A DNA stretch of 16,053 nucleotides from a virus. This document shows, one piece after another, positions 945 to 9,854 of the stretch; position 1 is the first letter of the stretch, and each line of letters opens with the position of its first letter. Location of the stretch: the UHGV virus genome UHGV-0060588. One strand, written 5' to 3'. The position numbers were made by a program, and so were the translations under genes. The notes beneath the pieces were generated by a model. It had not been told where the DNA came from and searched no databases. It saw nothing but the letters and a program-made list of their open reading frames with translations.

Positions 945-1280
945 TTAGTAACCTTCGCCCGCCGCATTAACAGTCAGAGACAGAGCCTCTTCCGGGGCGT
1001 TCACCACTTCCTTCCCGTCTTTGTACCAGGTCAGTACATACGGCGCTTTACCCGCCTTAACCTCGACAGTGATAGTCGCACTTCCGTCCGCCAGTTCAGC
1101 GCCCTGCGGTTGTACAGAGAAATACACATCTCCAGCGTCAGCCAGATACGGAACCTCGTAAAGCATACCCGCCGCAGGGAGTGCGATACCGGTTTTATCT
1201 GCAAACGGCATATCATCTACCGGTGTACCTAGTACACTTTCGTCTTCAATAAACACCACGTTCTCACCAGAGCCAGACAC
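945..1280 (-). CDS. Ig-like (Big-type) domain protein, 111 aa as drawn; true start uncertain
   Basis: Sequence has an Ig-like beta-sandwich flavour (ATITVEVKAGKAPYVLTWYKDGKEV). The track start is a GTG with no SD, and the frame stays open 28 codons further upstream without any ATG/GTG/TTG. Confidence 0.5.
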   Translation of the reverse strand: MSGSGENVVFIEDESVLGTPVDDMPFADKTGIALPAAGMLYEVPYLADAGDVYFSVQPQGAELADGSATITVEVKAGKAPYVLTWYKDGKEVVNAPEEALSLTVNAAGEGY

Positions 1281-1342: not shown

Positions 1343-1963
1343 CTAAACCTCTTTCATTGAGTTAATCTTACGTAAGACGCCTTCGAAAAGGCGTGGGTCT
1401 ATGCTATCGCAAAGACCTTTGTATTCATATGCTAATTCAATTTTTCTATGAAACCATGCTACGTGTGCCTCTTGAGCGGTTTCGTAAGCGCCTATTTGTT
1501 CAGATACGCCATCCACGGATACTTGAGCGATGAATCTTTTCTTTTGTTTATGGAAATGTACGCCGAGTGGGTGTTCGCCTCGAAGAGCGTGGGCTGTTAG
1601 GAAAGTATTGAGGGATTTAGGGATGAAAACACAGTTAGAAGCATCGTAAACCTTATTTCCCGGGTTAAGTAAATCCTTATCTATCTGCCACCCAGGTACA
1701 TAAAAATCATCAAACCAGACCTTGAAATTACTGAACACCAACCAATCGTCCGACACGCGGCAACCTATATAAGTTCTGTTTCTTTGCTGCCATTTCTTGT
1801 CGTAGCACCTCTTTAACATGTTCTTCCATACGGCGTAGGACGCTATATGCACCCCTCCGCAACTTATTGGTGAAACATCGTTAATACCCACACCAAAAAC
1901 AATTCCCATATTAAACCCTATAAGAAAACCCCATGAAGATTGGTCGATGCCAGAGATAGGCAT
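1343..1963 (-). CDS. HNH-like homing endonuclease with C-terminal AP2-type DNA-binding domain, 206 aa
   Basis: N-terminal signature ASYAVWKNMLKRCYD...IDKDLLNPGNKVYDASNCVF typical of phage HNH-family endonucleases, and C-terminal GVHFHKQKKRFIAQVSVDGVSEQIGAYETAQEAHVAW matching the AP2 pattern. It sits between head morphogenesis and Ig-like ORFs as a free-standing insertion. Confidence 0.65.
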   Translation of the reverse strand: MPISGIDQSSWGFLIGFNMGIVFGVGINDVSPISCGGVHIASYAVWKNMLKRCYDKKWQQRNRTYIGCRVSDDWLVFSNFKVWFDDFYVPGWQIDKDLLNPGNKVYDASNCVFIPKSLNTFLTAHALRGEHPLGVHFHKQKKRFIAQVSVDGVSEQIGAYETAQEAHVAWFHRKIELAYEYKGLCDSIDPRLFEGVLRKINSMKEV

Positions 1964-1977
1964 ACCTTCATGGGGTT
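1927..1977 (-). promoter_or_regulatory. 12-bp perfect inverted repeat (AACCCCATGAAG-N27-CTTCATGGGGTT) enclosing the HNH start codon
   Basis: Plus-strand 1927-1938 and 1966-1977 are exact reverse complements. In the minus-strand mRNA the ATG at 1963..1961 lies at the 5' edge of the loop. Confidence 0.4.
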
Positions 1978-2033: not shown

Positions 2034-3110
2034 TTATACCGACCTAAGATATTCAGCAACCCTGTTATCTAACGCCGCCATCTCCTTCAAGGTTAAAGGT
2101 CTACCAAAAGCGTCGACGGATATTACCCGGAATTCCTCTGGGGATATCCCACTATTCCTGAATATAGCACCGCGGGTAGGTCCGAGTGCTTCATCCACGA
2201 ACCATGCCGGTTGCTGTTTCAGGAACTCGTAATAGGTGGTGTCTGCGCTTACCTGCATACCGCCGTCCGCACCCTTAGCCGCGCGTTTTGCACCTTTATC
2301 TAGGAAGTCGAACTCCGAACTGATTACCGGTGCAGTGGTACTTCGACAATTCGGATGGGCGGGGGGCATCGGCCCCTTACCAATTTCCCACGTCATTCCG
2401 TCTCTGGCTCTGCAAATCGTACTGGTACGGCTGTCCAGTGTTGATACCCACTCGTACTTCTCGATGATGTCGTCGTTCTGGCGGTACGTCTCGTTGCGGG
2501 CTTCGTTGGATACGTGGGAAAGCGCGGTGCGAATTACAGTAGTTGCGTTTCGCTCAGAGATGTCAGCCAGCCCACCCGCGCCTACGACATTCTTAACAAT
2601 CTGCCGTGTGGTCTGGCCTTGTACGAAACCCATCTTAACGCCAGTTACCAGGCGCGCTACTTCTGTTTCGCCCCAACCATTCATCAGCTTAGTGAAGTCG
2701 ACAGGCTTGTCGCTTAATGAGAGCGGCTGAAACTCGGCAGCGGCCCACACCTGTTCAGCGGTAGGCGTAACAAATTCCGCGTCTACGTTGGCGGTCAGTG
2801 TCTTTACGTTCCACTCCGCTTCATATGCTGCCAGTTCCTTAAGGTCTTCTGTCAGCTTCGTCTGCCAGCCGCCTGTAAGTCCTGTTAATGCTTCTTCGAG
2901 GTCGCGTAACAATTTATTCAGCCGCGCGGTGCTCCGCCCGTCGTCGCCGAATAACAGCACCTGCCGTTTGATTTCGTCCCGCATCTCCTGAAGGAACGGT
3001 GCGAGGTCTTTCACTTCACCGGATGCGGTGCGTTGCAGCCATATCTGGTGGCTGATTAGAGATGTAAGTAAGCTCATAGCTAAACCCTGTGGTGCTAAAG
3101 TTAATAGCAT
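2034..3110 (-). CDS. phage head morphogenesis protein (SPP1 gp7 / Mu F-like minor head protein), 358 aa
   Basis: C-terminal signature WVSTLDSRTSTICRARDGMTWEIGKGPMPPAHPNCRST (W-x-TLD-x-RT...H-P-N-C-R) characteristic of this family, and position directly downstream of the portal gene. Confidence 0.8.
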   Translation of the reverse strand: MLLTLAPQGLAMSLLTSLISHQIWLQRTASGEVKDLAPFLQEMRDEIKRQVLLFGDDGRSTARLNKLLRDLEEALTGLTGGWQTKLTEDLKELAAYEAEWNVKTLTANVDAEFVTPTAEQVWAAAEFQPLSLSDKPVDFTKLMNGWGETEVARLVTGVKMGFVQGQTTRQIVKNVVGAGGLADISERNATTVIRTALSHVSNEARNETYRQNDDIIEKYEWVSTLDSRTSTICRARDGMTWEIGKGPMPPAHPNCRSTTAPVISSEFDFLDKGAKRAAKGADGGMQVSADTTYYEFLKQQPAWFVDEALGPTRGAIFRNSGISPEEFRVISVDAFGRPLTLKEMAALDNRVAEYLRSV

Positions 3111-3146
3111 ACTATAAGAAAGCCCCTTTCGGGGCTATATGTGAAC

Positions 3147-4631
3147 TTACTGCTGAGCGGTGTCTTGTTGTTGCTGCGCCGACTGCGGAATCTCTCCTGC
3201 TACCTGAGTAACCGCGCCTAACGGCAGCGGCGCGTCCTCAATAGCGTTCTGGATGTCTTCGTCCGTCCAGTCGGTTACGCCTGCCTTACGCAATGCCGAG
3301 TAATAGGCAGTAGCCGGTAACAGGCCCGCGTTAATGTCCGCCATCCACTGCGCTCGGTCCTGCGCGGTCATCGGTTGCAGGAAGAACTCCATGTTTAGCT
3401 TGAACTCAATTTCTGTGTCATCACGCAACCCAAGCATGGCAGCCGCCCAGCGCAACGCATCGGTATACGCCATGCTTACGTTACACGCGATTGTCGCCAT
3501 AACGGACGTATCGGCGCTGCGTTGTAGACGGGCTGATTCCGCAGTGATTTGCTGCGTCGGGGTGATAAGCTGCGCACCAATCCGGATGGCCTGATTCTCT
3601 TTATCCAGCATGTTCTGCTTGGCCAGGTTATTCTCTCCGGCCTGGACCAGAAACGCATTGCCGCCGTAGCCGATGTTATGACCTGAACGCGACCCCATGC
3701 GCACACCGTGTGGGTTAGCCTCTTTCCACTGTTCCATGCTCATGTTCTCACCCGGGGCGATGAACAGAGTTGGCTGACCTACAACGAAGCTGGATTCCTC
3801 ATTGTCTGCGCTGTTGCGGAAATGCCCGATATTAAGCTCGGCCAACGGCAGCAAAGGCGCATCGTCAATGGTCGCGTCGTTATTGCTTGCGCCAATAAAC
3901 GTGAACGGGATTTTGCCGCGCAACTGTTCGCCAAGTTCCGGGAATATTTCGATTACTTCATCCTGAGCGCCACCTTCGGCATCGAAGCGGTAAATGCGCT
4001 GGCGGTAGCGCCCATCAATCAGGTCAAGGACGCGGTATTGCTCGCCGAACTTTGTTTCGAACTCTGCACCGGGTTCAGAGTATTCCCATACTTCGCGCAA
4101 CACGACCATTGTCACGCGGTTAACTGAACCAACGCGGGTCAGTCTCCAGTTGATGATGTTCTCCGCGGTGTAGAATGCGATGACCGGGTTTAATAATCCT
4201 GCGTTCTGTTCGGCTGCCGTTGCTGCGGCGGTCTCTGGTGCATCAACCAGCAACCCGCCACGACCTACCGAGTCAATTTCCATCAAAGTATCCTGCGCGT
4301 GCTGCCATAGCCCGACACCTGAACCGTCAGCGTTGCGTAACAGGTACTCAAGTTCAGGCGGGATAATCTGCTCAGGGTCTTTACGCATAACACTGCCGAC
4401 CATCCCCGCCAGGGTACGTTTAGTGAAGTTGTAGCAGATAGCGCCGTTCTCGTATTCTTCCTGGCGCTGTGCCGCATAGGTCGGGTCAGGCTCGTTCTTC
4501 CCGACATTGCGCAGGTAACGGATGAGGTCGCCTTCCAGCGCGTGGCGCACCTTCTGCCATTTATTGAAGTGATGCAGCCATTCCCGGTGTTTTGTCTTAA
4601 CACCCTGATTCTGACCGTTCATAGTTAACAT
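3147..4631 (-). CDS. portal protein, 494 aa
   Basis: Size and position between the large terminase and head morphogenesis genes. GAGGA SD before the ATG at 4631, 12 nt after the TerL stop. No specific motif recalled. Confidence 0.7.
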   Translation of the reverse strand: MLTMNGQNQGVKTKHREWLHHFNKWQKVRHALEGDLIRYLRNVGKNEPDPTYAAQRQEEYENGAICYNFTKRTLAGMVGSVMRKDPEQIIPPELEYLLRNADGSGVGLWQHAQDTLMEIDSVGRGGLLVDAPETAAATAAEQNAGLLNPVIAFYTAENIINWRLTRVGSVNRVTMVVLREVWEYSEPGAEFETKFGEQYRVLDLIDGRYRQRIYRFDAEGGAQDEVIEIFPELGEQLRGKIPFTFIGASNNDATIDDAPLLPLAELNIGHFRNSADNEESSFVVGQPTLFIAPGENMSMEQWKEANPHGVRMGSRSGHNIGYGGNAFLVQAGENNLAKQNMLDKENQAIRIGAQLITPTQQITAESARLQRSADTSVMATIACNVSMAYTDALRWAAAMLGLRDDTEIEFKLNMEFFLQPMTAQDRAQWMADINAGLLPATAYYSALRKAGVTDWTDEDIQNAIEDAPLPLGAVTQVAGEIPQSAQQQQDTAQQ

Positions 4632-4643
4632 TGAATAATCCTC

Positions 4644-5894
4644 TTAAAGTGCGAAAGTCACCGGGATGTTGATTACTGGCTTAACCACCGGCATCTCATA
4701 AACTACAGGATAGCCGAGAGCATCCGCCATATGGTCAATGACGCCGTCTTTAGCAGGCTCTCCGTTATCATCATATGCCTGCTGCTCCAGTGTCTTCGCT
4801 ATCTCAGGGCATAAGTGGTCGTTAACCCACAGCTTACCTTTTTCCAGCGCGGTATTCACGGCTAAAACACGGTCTTTAACCGGTGGGTTGGCGGATTTAG
4901 CGCGAACATCAAAACCGGCCTGCTGTAGTAAGGCGATATCGGAGATTGACGCCGAGTTGGTTTTGCGGTTCTTGCCGCTGGCGTCCGGGTAAACGACGAT
5001 GCGGTGGCCTTGCGACTTCCACTTCTCGGTAATCACACGCACGGTATCTGGCGTATCGAACAGGCCCTTCAGTTCTGCTACCGCGTGCCAGCCGTCTTTA
5101 CGTTGCACATACACGGCGCTGGCGTTCTTCGTAACGTTGAAGTCCTGCCCGATGTACAGCGTGTCGCCCGGTTGGATTGTCTCTTTGCTGCGATGCTTAC
5201 GTCGGTCGTAGGCGTAGTAGACGCTGCCGGATGTCAGGTTAACGAACTCCCCATTCAGATACGCGTTAATCAGTTGCGCTGGGTAAGTCTCGGTCAGCGA
5301 GCTAATGTAGTCAGGCGGCAGGAATCGCGCGTTCTCGTGGGTGGAAGCCTGCACCATTGAGTAACTCGGTGTCGGGTTCTCTTTGAACTTGGCGTAGACG
5401 AACTTGAACCCTTCCGGCGTCGTGGTGACGGAGATGTGGTTGGTTACACCAGGGATAACCAGACGCATACGGGCGACGATTTTGTTCCATGCCAGTTCAG
5501 CTTTTTCTCGGCTCAGTACGTCCAGTTCATCCACGACCGCGGCGGCGATTTTGAAACCCACAATCGAACCGGGGTTATCCATAGAACGACAGATAACCGT
5601 TCCGAGCACCGTCTTACCGCGAGTAACCACGACCTCTTTGTCTCCGGATTTAACCAGCACATCAAGGCCGAGCAGGTTAGCCGCTTCCTCGAATGTCGGG
5701 TAGAAGATGTCACGGATGGCGGGATAGGTAGGGCCGAAGTAGCCCAGGCGTGTACCAGGGTGCTTGAGCATAAACGTAAGCAGGTCAAGGCAGCCGACAA
5801 ACGTCTTGCCACTACCGAAGCCGCCTACGTAGGCCTTGTATTTGTTGTCACAATTCAGGAACAGTGCCTGCGGCGCGGATAGCTGAATACTCAT
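4644..5894 (-). CDS. terminase large subunit (TerL), 416 aa
   Basis: N-terminal ATPase with Walker A GGFGSGKT and Walker B VVDELD, and a C-terminal nuclease-like region with conserved acidic residues (IGQDFN, YPDASG). The start overlaps the TerS stop (ATGA). Confidence 0.85.
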   Translation of the reverse strand: MSIQLSAPQALFLNCDNKYKAYVGGFGSGKTFVGCLDLLTFMLKHPGTRLGYFGPTYPAIRDIFYPTFEEAANLLGLDVLVKSGDKEVVVTRGKTVLGTVICRSMDNPGSIVGFKIAAAVVDELDVLSREKAELAWNKIVARMRLVIPGVTNHISVTTTPEGFKFVYAKFKENPTPSYSMVQASTHENARFLPPDYISSLTETYPAQLINAYLNGEFVNLTSGSVYYAYDRRKHRSKETIQPGDTLYIGQDFNVTKNASAVYVQRKDGWHAVAELKGLFDTPDTVRVITEKWKSQGHRIVVYPDASGKNRKTNSASISDIALLQQAGFDVRAKSANPPVKDRVLAVNTALEKGKLWVNDHLCPEIAKTLEQQAYDDNGEPAKDGVIDHMADALGYPVVYEMPVVKPVINIPVTFAL

Positions 5895-8615: not shown

Positions 8616-9101
8616 TCAACCTTTCACCGCGCGCCCGATAGCCTCCGCCTCCTGCCACGGCTTACCGTCGAACAGCGCAAGACGCCCGGCGGTACGGCGA
8701 CGCAGACCGAGTAATGGTTTGCCGTTCTGGTTGATGAACAGCGCCAGCTTAGCCCGCAGTGTCGCAATATCACCAGAACGCAGAGCCTTACCGGTTCCGG
8801 TAGTAGCCGCAATCACACCGGCACCCGCGTTATAGACCAGGTCACACACAGCGTCGAACTGCGCCTGTGTCAGGGAGTGGTGTGCTGCCGCATCAACCGC
8901 AGCTACGGCCTTAGCCATATCGCGATTCAGTAACAGGAGGCCTTGGCCAGGGGTGATGGTCTTACCTTCATACACATGAGGGCCATAGCTTCCGTAGCCT
9001 ATGGTTAAGTATTTTTCCGAAGGTGTCGCGCGGTAGGCGGTCCCGCGGAAATCTTCCCAAGCCGCAGTAAACTTGAGGCCGTTGTCACTCATCGAGCGCA
9101 T
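8616..9101 (-). CDS. endolysin, phage lysozyme (T4/lambda-type glycoside hydrolase family 24), 161 aa
   Basis: Lysozyme signature FTAAWEDFRGTAYRATPSEKYLTIGYGSYGP (catalytic Glu/Asp/Thr context). GGAG SD 8 nt before ATG 9101, which overlaps the HNH gene end. Confidence 0.85.
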   Translation of the reverse strand: MRSMSDNGLKFTAAWEDFRGTAYRATPSEKYLTIGYGSYGPHVYEGKTITPGQGLLLLNRDMAKAVAAVDAAAHHSLTQAQFDAVCDLVYNAGAGVIAATTGTGKALRSGDIATLRAKLALFINQNGKPLLGLRRRTAGRLALFDGKPWQEAEAIGRAVKG

Positions 9102-9604
9102 AAAGAGAACTCCTTGTGGTATTTATCTCGGGCTTCGCTAGCTACTAACTCAGCGAACTCAAGGTCATCGAAGTAACCGAAAAACTTGCGCACACCTTTT
9201 TGCAAACGGATTCTCACCATCCATTTCCCTTGCTGTCTATGGACGCCTGATACTCCGCTGGTGTTGTTGCGCGATAACCCACGGTTGCGGTTGTTGTCCT
9301 GCGAGTCACATTCTCTCAGGTTACAAAACCTATTATCGTCTCTTACCCCGTTCCTGTGGTCTATCTGCCCGCTGGGCCACTCTCCTGTTATATAGAACCA
9401 TGCAAGCCTGTGTTGCCGTAGGTATTTACCTTTGAGCATGATTACTTTATACCCGTCCGGGTCTCTCCCGTCTGGCACAGTCCCTTTAGGGGCTTTTGAA
9501 CTAACCGTCTTAAGCCACGTGAATAACCCCGTGTCAGGGTTGTAATCTAAAACGCTACGAACATAGTCACGGCTAAGTTCATTATCTGAAATGTTTCGAG
9601 ACAC
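9089..9604 (-). CDS. HNH-AP2 homing endonuclease, about 171 aa from GTG 9604
   Basis: HNH motif QHRLAWFYITGEWPSGQIDHRNGVRDDNRFCNLRECDSQDNNRNRG and AP2-type C-terminus GVSGVHRQQGKWMVRIRLQKGVRKFFGYFDDLEFAEL. GTG 9604 has a GGAGGA SD 7 nt upstream; the track start at ATG 9655 has none and would overlap the upstream gene by 70 nt. Confidence 0.8.
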   Translation of the reverse strand: MSRNISDNELSRDYVRSVLDYNPDTGLFTWLKTVSSKAPKGTVPDGRDPDGYKVIMLKGKYLRQHRLAWFYITGEWPSGQIDHRNGVRDDNRFCNLRECDSQDNNRNRGLSRNNTSGVSGVHRQQGKWMVRIRLQKGVRKFFGYFDDLEFAELVASEARDKYHKEFSLCAR

Positions 9605-9854
9605 GCTTATGTCCTCCGTATGACAGCCACGCCTGTCGAATCTGACGCAGCGCAACTAATGTGATTAATGTCTCAGGCAACGTGGGCGACATGCTGCCCT
9701 GTAACAGGTGAATGCCCCCGGCAGCGCAGACAATAGCGGTCAGGATATAGAGCACCCGACCAAATAGCCCGTCGTCAACGCTGGGGTGATACACATTAAA
9801 CAGCGATGTGCCTCCGATTGCCAGCATACCGCCGAACCAGAATAACTCATTCAT
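9582..9854 (-). CDS. small membrane protein with two predicted transmembrane segments (holin/antiholin-like), 90 aa from ATG 9854
   Basis: Internal ATG 9854 has a GGAGG SD and overlaps the holin stop (ATGA); the track ORF 9582..9935 begins earlier, inside the holin gene. Two hydrophobic stretches (LFWFGGMLAIGGTSLF and VLYILTAIVCAAGGIHLL). Confidence 0.55.
   Translation of the reverse strand: MNELFWFGGMLAIGGTSLFNVYHPSVDDGLFGRVLYILTAIVCAAGGIHLLQGSMSPTLPETLITLVALRQIRQAWLSYGGHKRVSKHFR

Follow-up and report, generated by a model that had tools for sequence, protein, structure and literature searches.

The window analysed here is the whole 16,053-nucleotide stretch of the virus genome UHGV-0060588, a Kagunavirus-like (Guernseyvirinae) E. 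coli siphophage with 91–95% identity to fPoEco01, fFiEco02, K1ind3, 536P11 and Schulenburg in megablast. At the 5' end of a putative HNH endonuclease gene lies a perfect inverted repeat, and the question is what this repeat does. A sequence-only reading of the window had described it as wrapped around the start codon, acting either as a translational brake or as a mark of the endonuclease recognition or insertion site. The comparison with relatives gives a different answer. The repeat is the outer stem of P2, the second of two covarying RNA hairpins (P1 and P2) in the untranslated leader of the gene, and this leader is part of an inserted cassette. Tentatively, P2 may be a leaky Rho-independent terminator.

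The arms AACCCCATGAAG (1927–1938) and CTTCATGGGGTT (1966–1977) are exact reverse complements in 12 of 12 positions with 27 nt between them, just as the sequence-only reading had reported. They form the sole perfect 12-bp inverted repeat with a gap of 3–60 nt in the window. As 43 of 1000 dinucleotide shuffles of the window held at least one such repeat, the repeat alone is only mildly unusual. The minus-strand RNA is predicted to fold into the suspected hairpin, with −26.7 kcal/mol and a z-score of −6.9. What carries the repeat far beyond chance is that 19 distinct relatives keep the stem via compensatory substitutions.

These 19 distinct leader versions (alignment A2) were taken from GenBank phages, IMG/VR, metagenomes, Logan assemblies and Salmonella whole-genome contigs. 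All of them sit between a Mu-F gene and an endonuclease gene of the same clade (51–100% amino-acid identity). In the P2 outer stem, five of the 12 pairs were changed on both sides, and 99.6% of the alignment cells were paired. The arms occurred, for example, as AUGAAG/CUUCAU, AUGGAG/CUCCAU, GUUGAG/CUCAAC and ACGUAG/CUACGU. The P1 stem was changed on both sides in five of its six pairs. None of 500 shuffles reached the observed covariation score, and sliding the pairing partners lowered the pairing from 96% to 25–43%. RNAalifold independently predicted the same P1 and P2 helices. About 13 cells were G·U on the gene strand (A·C on the other strand), while the reverse case was limited to one C·A cell. 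This bias means that the structure acts as sense RNA and not as a DNA palindrome. The covarying arms and the wobble pairs, which fit the sense RNA only, contradict the earlier suggestion of an endonuclease recognition or insertion-site marker.

Whether the repeat surrounds the start codon depends on which start is used. For the longest open reading frame (ORF), which begins at ATG 1963, the earlier description was correct: the ATG is at the edge of the loop and the 3' arm falls in codons 9–12. It fails for the conserved start. Most of the 20 aligned homologues (41–97% identity) begin with M-(V/A/T)-G-x-V-F-G-V-G, which corresponds to ATG 1909, and the 18-residue N-terminal extension from ATG 1963 is missing or unconserved in them. 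A purine-rich Shine–Dalgarno (SD) sequence (AGGG, AGGA, GGTG, GAGG, GGAG or GGGG) was found 6–9 nt upstream of this ATG in 19 of 19 leaders. The equivalent of ATG 1963 is out of frame in eight of the 19 relatives, its distance to the aligned ATG varies from 52 to 57 nt, and in the window an AAGG is only 1 nt away from it. GenBank annotations are split 2:2 between the two starts. The predicted conserved start is ATG 1909, not ATG 1963. With the start at 1909, the hairpin is located in the untranslated 5' leader, and half of the GenBank records start the gene inside an RNA structure, adding 18 spurious residues.

The 3' end of the hairpin lies 17 nt upstream of AUG 1909 and 7 nt upstream of its SD. 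Hence, the repeat is not wrapped around the start codon. Unlike in a stem that sequesters the ribosome binding site (RBS), the SD and the AUG are both 3' of the hairpin, and the only start codon inside is the non-conserved ATG 1963. The idea of a brake survives in part: the RNA hairpin is under selection, and restraint of expression is its most plausible role. But any such brake does not work by start-codon sequestration in the stem, because the stem ends before both the AUG and the SD.

From 5' to 3', the leader RNA consists of P1, an A-rich linker, P2, a U-rich tail, the SD and the AUG (Table 1). P2 reads AACCCCAUGAAG-GU-AUGCC-UAUCUCU-GGCAU-CGACCAAU-CUUCAUGGGGUU and is followed by UUCUUAUAGGGUUUAAUAUG. 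Its CCCC/GGGG base is conserved, its middle covaries, and its interior is invariant (GGU, the P2a stem AUGCC/GGCAU and the internal loop CGACCAAA). Both stem strands of the inner hairpin P2a are invariant in the 19 sequences, and its loop differs in length (7 or 8 nt) and sequence. The AUG of P2a is the misleading start of the longest ORF. In the 18-nt loop of P1 (CUAGCUUUGGUCGGUGAA, 2019–2002), 15 positions are invariant and the remaining three are at least 90% conserved. The AAGAA of the A-rich linker can pair with the UUCUU of the U-rich tail. All 19 sequences have five to seven U among the 9 nt after GGGG despite sequence change; only four of them are consecutive in the window.

Table 1. 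Positions of the leader elements, the inserted cassette and neighbouring features in the window.
Feature	Position	Strand	Details
Large terminase gene	4644–5894	minus	
Portal gene	3147–4631	minus	
Look-alike small hairpin	3121–3136	minus	AGCCCCgaaaGGGGCU + UUUCUUAUAG; between portal and head-morphogenesis genes
Mu-F-like head-morphogenesis gene	2034–3110	minus	
Speculative sigma-70 promoter	2031–2059	minus	−35 TTGCTG (2059–2054), 17-nt spacer, −10 TAAAGT (2036–2031)
Inserted cassette	1340–2046	minus	Basis: junction comparison with L003 and L004; homology break at ~2047
Endonuclease-less junction			...TATCTGAAAGGGGATTAATGATGGGC...
P1, upstream hairpin	1996–2025	minus	UAGUAG (2025–2020) pairs with CUACUA (2001–1996)
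UUUGGUCG in the P1 loop	2007–2014	minus	Complementary to 1946–1940
A-rich linker between P1 and P2	1978–1995	minus	Sequence variable, composition conserved (alignment A2)
P2, containing the inverted repeat	1927–1977	minus	Outer stem AACCCCAUGAAG (1977–1966) pairs with CUUCAUGGGGUU (1938–1927)
P2a, inner hairpin	1947–1963	minus	AUGCC (1963–1959), loop UAUCUCU (1958–1952), GGCAU (1951–1947)
3' internal loop of P2	1939–1946	minus	CGACCAAU (most relatives: CGACCAAA); proposed to pair with the P1 loop
U-rich tail	1920–1926	minus	With two stem-base U reads UUUUCUUAU (1928–1920)
SD of the endonuclease gene	1916–1919	minus	AGGG; conserved in the alignment
Endonuclease-like gene	1343–1909	minus	188 amino acids from the conserved start; basis: PHROG 953, N-termini of homologues
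Longest 'HNH' ORF	1343–1963	minus	
Hoc-like decoration gene		minus	3' of the endonuclease ORF

The two-hairpin leader is an undescribed element. Rfam 15 gave no family match: nothing reached the gathering score in the whole window, and a search of 1850–2100 at E-values up to 10 gave only a chance match to mir-454 (17 bits versus a gathering score of 60). A literature search found no description of the element for Kagunavirus or Guernseyvirinae.

The leader came with the gene. The cassette of ~700 bp is inserted between the head-morphogenesis and decoration genes. With it, the head-morphogenesis gene receives a new stop and new last codons, and the decoration gene a new SD; between them lie the leader, 124 nt long (stop codon at 2034 to ATG 1909), and the endonuclease ORF. 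The endonuclease gene was present in seven of 262 related phage records, and the insertion was missing from the other 255. In two endonuclease-less loci (L003 and L004), the head-morphogenesis and decoration genes abut (...GATTATCTGAAAGGGGATTAATGATGGGC...). This is a presence/absence polymorphism at one precise site in otherwise collinear genomes, as expected of a free-standing homing endonuclease cassette. The inverted repeat and the other conserved leader motifs were not found in L003 and L004; an element carried within the cassette itself and missing where the endonuclease is missing is at odds with a marker of the insertion site. Within the clade, the P1–P2 leader and the endonuclease gene are co-inherited.

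Viral, metagenome and genome collections were scanned for the conserved core, both alone and combined with the P1 loop, and it was found only upstream of this endonuclease clade; other matches to the core pattern in those collections were chance matches in coding DNA. A covariance model (R1) built from alignment A2 found no second copy in the window and gave a lone weak match at 3101–3220. Relatives at ≤47% identity were without the leader. One homologue with 47% identity (L173:100–245, Logan ERR15093836) apparently occupies the same site, as the coding sequence upstream of it ends in a similar way. Its N-terminus is longer, and upstream it has not the P1–P2 leader but a different, G+C-rich sequence.

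The invariant loops may contact each other. UUUGGUCG in the P1 loop can pair with the internal loop of P2 (CGACCAA; CGACCAAA) over 7 bp in the window and 8 bp in most relatives, with about −9 kcal/mol. The internal loop is invariant except for one A-to-G change, which keeps a U·G pair with the P1 loop. As both strands are invariant within the clade, covariation there cannot test the kissing contact. RNAalifold also predicted an alternative local pairing of GGU with ACC (columns 87–89).

Outside the clade, R1 gave weak but well-positioned matches upstream of homologues with 38–41% identity (L038, 30.9 bits; L031, 22.7 bits; L193, 19.9 bits). The distant leaders share the layout of P1, P2 with a CCCC...GGGG-type base and U-tract, SD and ATG. 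Complementary segments are found in L038 (UGGAAC/GUUCCA) and L193 (UAGGAA/UUCCUA), in both cases at the 3' internal loop of P2 as in the window. In L031 and L034, 7-nt apical loops are complementary (GUACCAG/CUGGUAC and GUACGAG/CUCGUAC, respectively), with one change per side between the two. The genes concerned lie after a large terminase gene, near a DnaB-like helicase gene and near an antirepressor gene. As homology to the leader of the window is uncertain, we treat the distant leaders as architectural parallels. A search for relatives of the L038 protein, aimed at more L038-like leaders, returned L038 alone. A generic kissing-hairpin detector was uninformative (29 of 71 upstream regions versus 117 of 266 controls).

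What the leader does is less certain than what it is. The reading we tentatively put first, at slightly less than even odds, is that P2 is a leaky Rho-independent terminator and insulator that restrains the endonuclease, with P1 kissing P2 and thereby shaping or stabilising the fold. P2 has several hallmarks of a terminator: a G+C-rich base within a stable 12-bp stem, as in intrinsic terminators, a U-rich tail, and an A-rich 5' flank able to pair with the tail. Moreover, terminator-like sites were more frequent immediately upstream of homologues (18 of 59 windows versus 29 of 412 control windows), which is only modest evidence because the controls were mostly coding sequence. The P2 tail also has a 15-nt motif, GGGGYTTTCTTATAG, in common with the canonical terminator-like hairpin at 3121–3136.

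In this mechanism, the CCCC/GGGG base and the directly adjoining U-rich tract would halt most transcripts of the late structural operon, which is strongly expressed. Transcripts from any cassette promoter just upstream of P1 would face this stop as well. The endonuclease ORF and the decoration gene would be present on read-through transcripts alone, which would keep the endonuclease level low. In a kissing or pseudoknot contact, the P1 loop would pair with the 3' internal loop of P2 and lock the leader into a compact fold, which might tune termination, stabilise the RNA end, or both.

Several points weigh against this reading. P2 is atypical for a terminator, being 51 nt long with an asymmetric internal loop and a U-tract that is interrupted after four U. 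Instead of the compact, short loop (3–8 nt) of intrinsic terminators, it has 27 nt between the arms, containing an inner hairpin and an 8-nt internal loop. A terminator scan of the window gave no call at P2, which it missed because its loop limit was 8 nt. Efficient termination would have a polar effect on the decoration gene downstream, for which there is no separate promoter, and a plain terminator would leave the near-invariant P1 loop, P2a and the internal loop unexplained. Covariation of the kissing contact rests on a few distant, possibly non-homologous leaders. One further leader (L205:934–1048, IMGVR_UViG_3300020049_003725) is near-identical to that of L034, with the same loops GUACGAG/CUCGUAC and then a U-tract, and it precedes a 542-amino-acid DUF4942/methyltransferase gene instead of an endonuclease gene. 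Therefore, this leader type is not exclusive to endonuclease genes.

Relatives conserve the hairpin at 3121–3136 whether or not they carry the endonuclease, and it is a weak R1 match (15.3 bits). In L089 and L171, a small G+C hairpin with a U-rich tail follows the portal gene, and then comes an opposite-strand ORF. For the head-morphogenesis gene, ATG 3077 (SD AGGG, fPoEco01 annotation) is a more likely start than 3110. The base, tail and RBS of P2 (ATATAACCCC..GGGGTTTTCTTATAG, then GGTTTAATATG) resemble the region 3077–3136 minus 25 nt, which hints at possible recombination between both regions.

A candidate promoter precedes P1. Its −10 element overlaps the stop codon of the head-morphogenesis gene. 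A −10-like hexamer (with A2 and T6) was found 17–18 nt from TTGCNG in 18 of 18 relatives with enough upstream sequence, seven of them with a TGn extension. The candidate is absent at the endonuclease-less junction, scored below the threshold of the promoter scan and is not evident before the distant leaders. Speculatively, transcription from it would begin at the 5' base of P1, and the order would be promoter, leader, terminator and gene.

Other explanations were considered. P1–P2 could be an element of RNA processing or stability, that is, a site cut by RNase III or RNase E or a block to exonucleases, which would protect the 3' end of the head-gene mRNA or the 5' end of the endonuclease–decoration mRNA and offset the damage of the insertion to the operon. 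The succession of lower stem, asymmetric internal loop and upper stem resembles phage RNase III sites such as the R sites of T7. The fold is very stable, P1 would form the extreme 5' end of the transcript should the candidate promoter be genuine, and RNase E cleavage of seg and mobE transcripts is documented (PMC2988022). However, the helix has only 17 bp, which is short for RNase III, no cleavage site was identified, and the conserved U-tract is left unexplained. We consider this explanation unlikely. A responsive riboregulator, in which the leader is riboswitch-like, bound by the endonuclease or itself active in trans as a small RNA via its complementary loops (as in the CI RNA immunity of phage P4), and in which the contact of the P1 and P2 loops chooses between termination and read-through, could account for the near-invariant unpaired nucleotides between covarying stems. 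The ACC can pair with either the local GGU or the P1 loop, the two being mutually exclusive, and the pairing of the P1 loop can be extended to 11 bp (UUUGGUCGGUG with CAUCGACCAAA) at the cost of P2a. The possible upstream promoter and the lack of a known Rfam family also fit. Against it, the distribution is narrow (one endonuclease clade at one genomic site), there is no candidate ligand, the promoter is speculative, and the invariant elements give no covariation within the clade. A riboregulator seems rather doubtful. In a broader proposal, the P1–P2 leader might represent a class of structured cis-regulatory RNA not described before, namely a two-hairpin attenuator with a kissing contact that moves among phages with endonuclease and occasionally other genes, its loop–loop switch setting termination or read-through and perhaps being modulated by the endonuclease, a host factor or a leader RNA in trans. 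We consider this proposal unlikely.

Control of translation was weighed as well. The hairpin 5' of the SD and a mini-hairpin between the U-tail and the AUG (UUCUUAUA with UAUGGGAA) might lower initiation at AUG 1909; in a variant, the hairpin would shield the RBS from the ribosomes and the sequence context of the upstream gene. The predicted unpaired probability of the AUG is only 0.01–0.08 in Kagunavirus-type sequences, and the endonuclease gene seg43(25) has the same order of hairpin and RBS. The AUG mini-hairpin is not conserved in other variants of the cassette, however, where the AUG is unpaired with a probability of 0.4–0.9, and the SD region is about half open everywhere. We regard this control as improbable. 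Least probable by far is the original proposal that the stem sequesters the start codon at 1963 or that the repeat is a DNA site for recognition or nicking by the endonuclease. In the window, ATG 1963 is in frame and open, and it is the annotated start in two GenBank records, but the state of the N-terminal extension, the out-of-frame relatives and the cramped AAGG argue against this start, and the sense-strand covariation and the endonuclease-less alleles without the repeat argue against a DNA site.

Two further candidates were rejected. A small leader peptide is contradicted by the ATG in the 5' arm, which is not conserved, and by the ORF from the invariant AUGCC, which shifts frame with the loop length and gives unrelated peptides (MPISGIDQ... 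versus MPSFRHRP...). A target-site remnant or palindromic DNA recognition site does not fit five pairs that are changed on both sides, nor the absence of the core motifs from L003 and L004.

The protein encoded behind the leader matches PHROG 953 'HNH endonuclease' (E = 5e-77), and a Pfam scan gave no match. It has a weak AP2-like DNA-binding region and an HNH_3-like motif that reads (I/L)DKD...N, with D95, K96 and D97 invariant in 21 aligned homologues. The Lys of DKD occupies what we take to be the position of the catalytic His in the HNH_3 consensus. The nuclease activity of this 'HNH' protein is putative only. Compared at the DNA level with nine close relatives, the gene lacks one codon at ~1520–1530 (AHDALRG to AH-ALRG). 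A second, unrelated HNH gene lies at 9089–9655 on the minus strand (Pfam HNH_3, PHROG 99). The P1–P2 leader was not found upstream of it, where the best R1 score nearby was 8.9 bits.

Downstream of the cassette, the decoration gene begins at ATG 1339, followed by a run of eight T (1333–1326) on the minus strand. All 17 relatives checked have TTTTTC or TTTTTT at this place. The run therefore amounts to a +2 frameshift in the decoration gene of the window, with a stop after six codons, and the ORF is not resumed until GTG 1280..945. It reflects either an error in sequencing the homopolymer or a genuine pseudogene. A perfect bidirectional terminator-like hairpin, AAGGCCCCAUUAUGGGGCCUU, is found at 911–931, flanked by the decoration gene on the minus strand and an ORF on the plus strand (385–906). 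The plus-strand ORF encodes a sliding-clamp-like protein according to the GenBank annotation in relatives.

Free-standing homing endonucleases need enough expression to spread, but not so much that they harm the phage, and their regulation is known almost only from T4-like phages. The element described here is supported by covariation and lacks an Rfam match, and leaders of similar architecture occur in other phages. Should termination be controlled by the kissing contact, the selfish gene would carry a compact, portable module for its expression control.

In T4 and Aeh1, expression of homing endonucleases is limited by weak terminators, hairpins and RNase E sites, namely weak intrinsic terminators for T4 mobE and segF and RBS-sequestering hairpins for I-TevI, I-TevII, I-TevIII, segB and Aeh1 mobE (PMC2988022). 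The leader of the window is similar in that RNA structure and partial termination (here predicted) would restrain a homing endonuclease in polycistronic phage transcripts. In T4, however, the terminators are found within the 5' part of the coding region, and hairpins of the T4 type enclose the SD, whereas the hairpin of the window is upstream of both SD and AUG and is coupled to a second hairpin. Closer in position is seg43(25) of Aeromonas phage 25, where a very stable hairpin is found just upstream of the RBS without enclosing it (PMC2988022). In both cases, a stable hairpin is 5' of the RBS of a free-standing homing endonuclease gene. The hairpin of seg43(25) is a single, predicted one, with no reported covariation, partner hairpin or kissing contact; its role is itself a prediction, and the families differ (GIY-YIG seg versus HNH/AP2-like).

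With the Rho-independent terminators of E. coli and its phages, P2 shares the G+C-rich stem base, the U-rich 3' tail and the A-rich 5' flank. It differs from them in its length of 51 nt, the asymmetric internal loop, the inner hairpin, the sequence-invariant interior, the interrupted U-tract and the conserved partner hairpin ~20 nt upstream. Loop pairing is known to control termination or translation in the CI RNA of phage P4 with seqA and seqC (immunity) and in the pseudoknot of IncI-alpha repZ. These systems likewise have complementary loops in one leader transcript, but share no sequence or structural homology with the leader of the window. The leader is best filed among the RNA structures and partial terminators that keep homing-endonuclease genes of phages in check; it is distinguished from these by a covariation-supported two-hairpin architecture with a proposed loop–loop contact.

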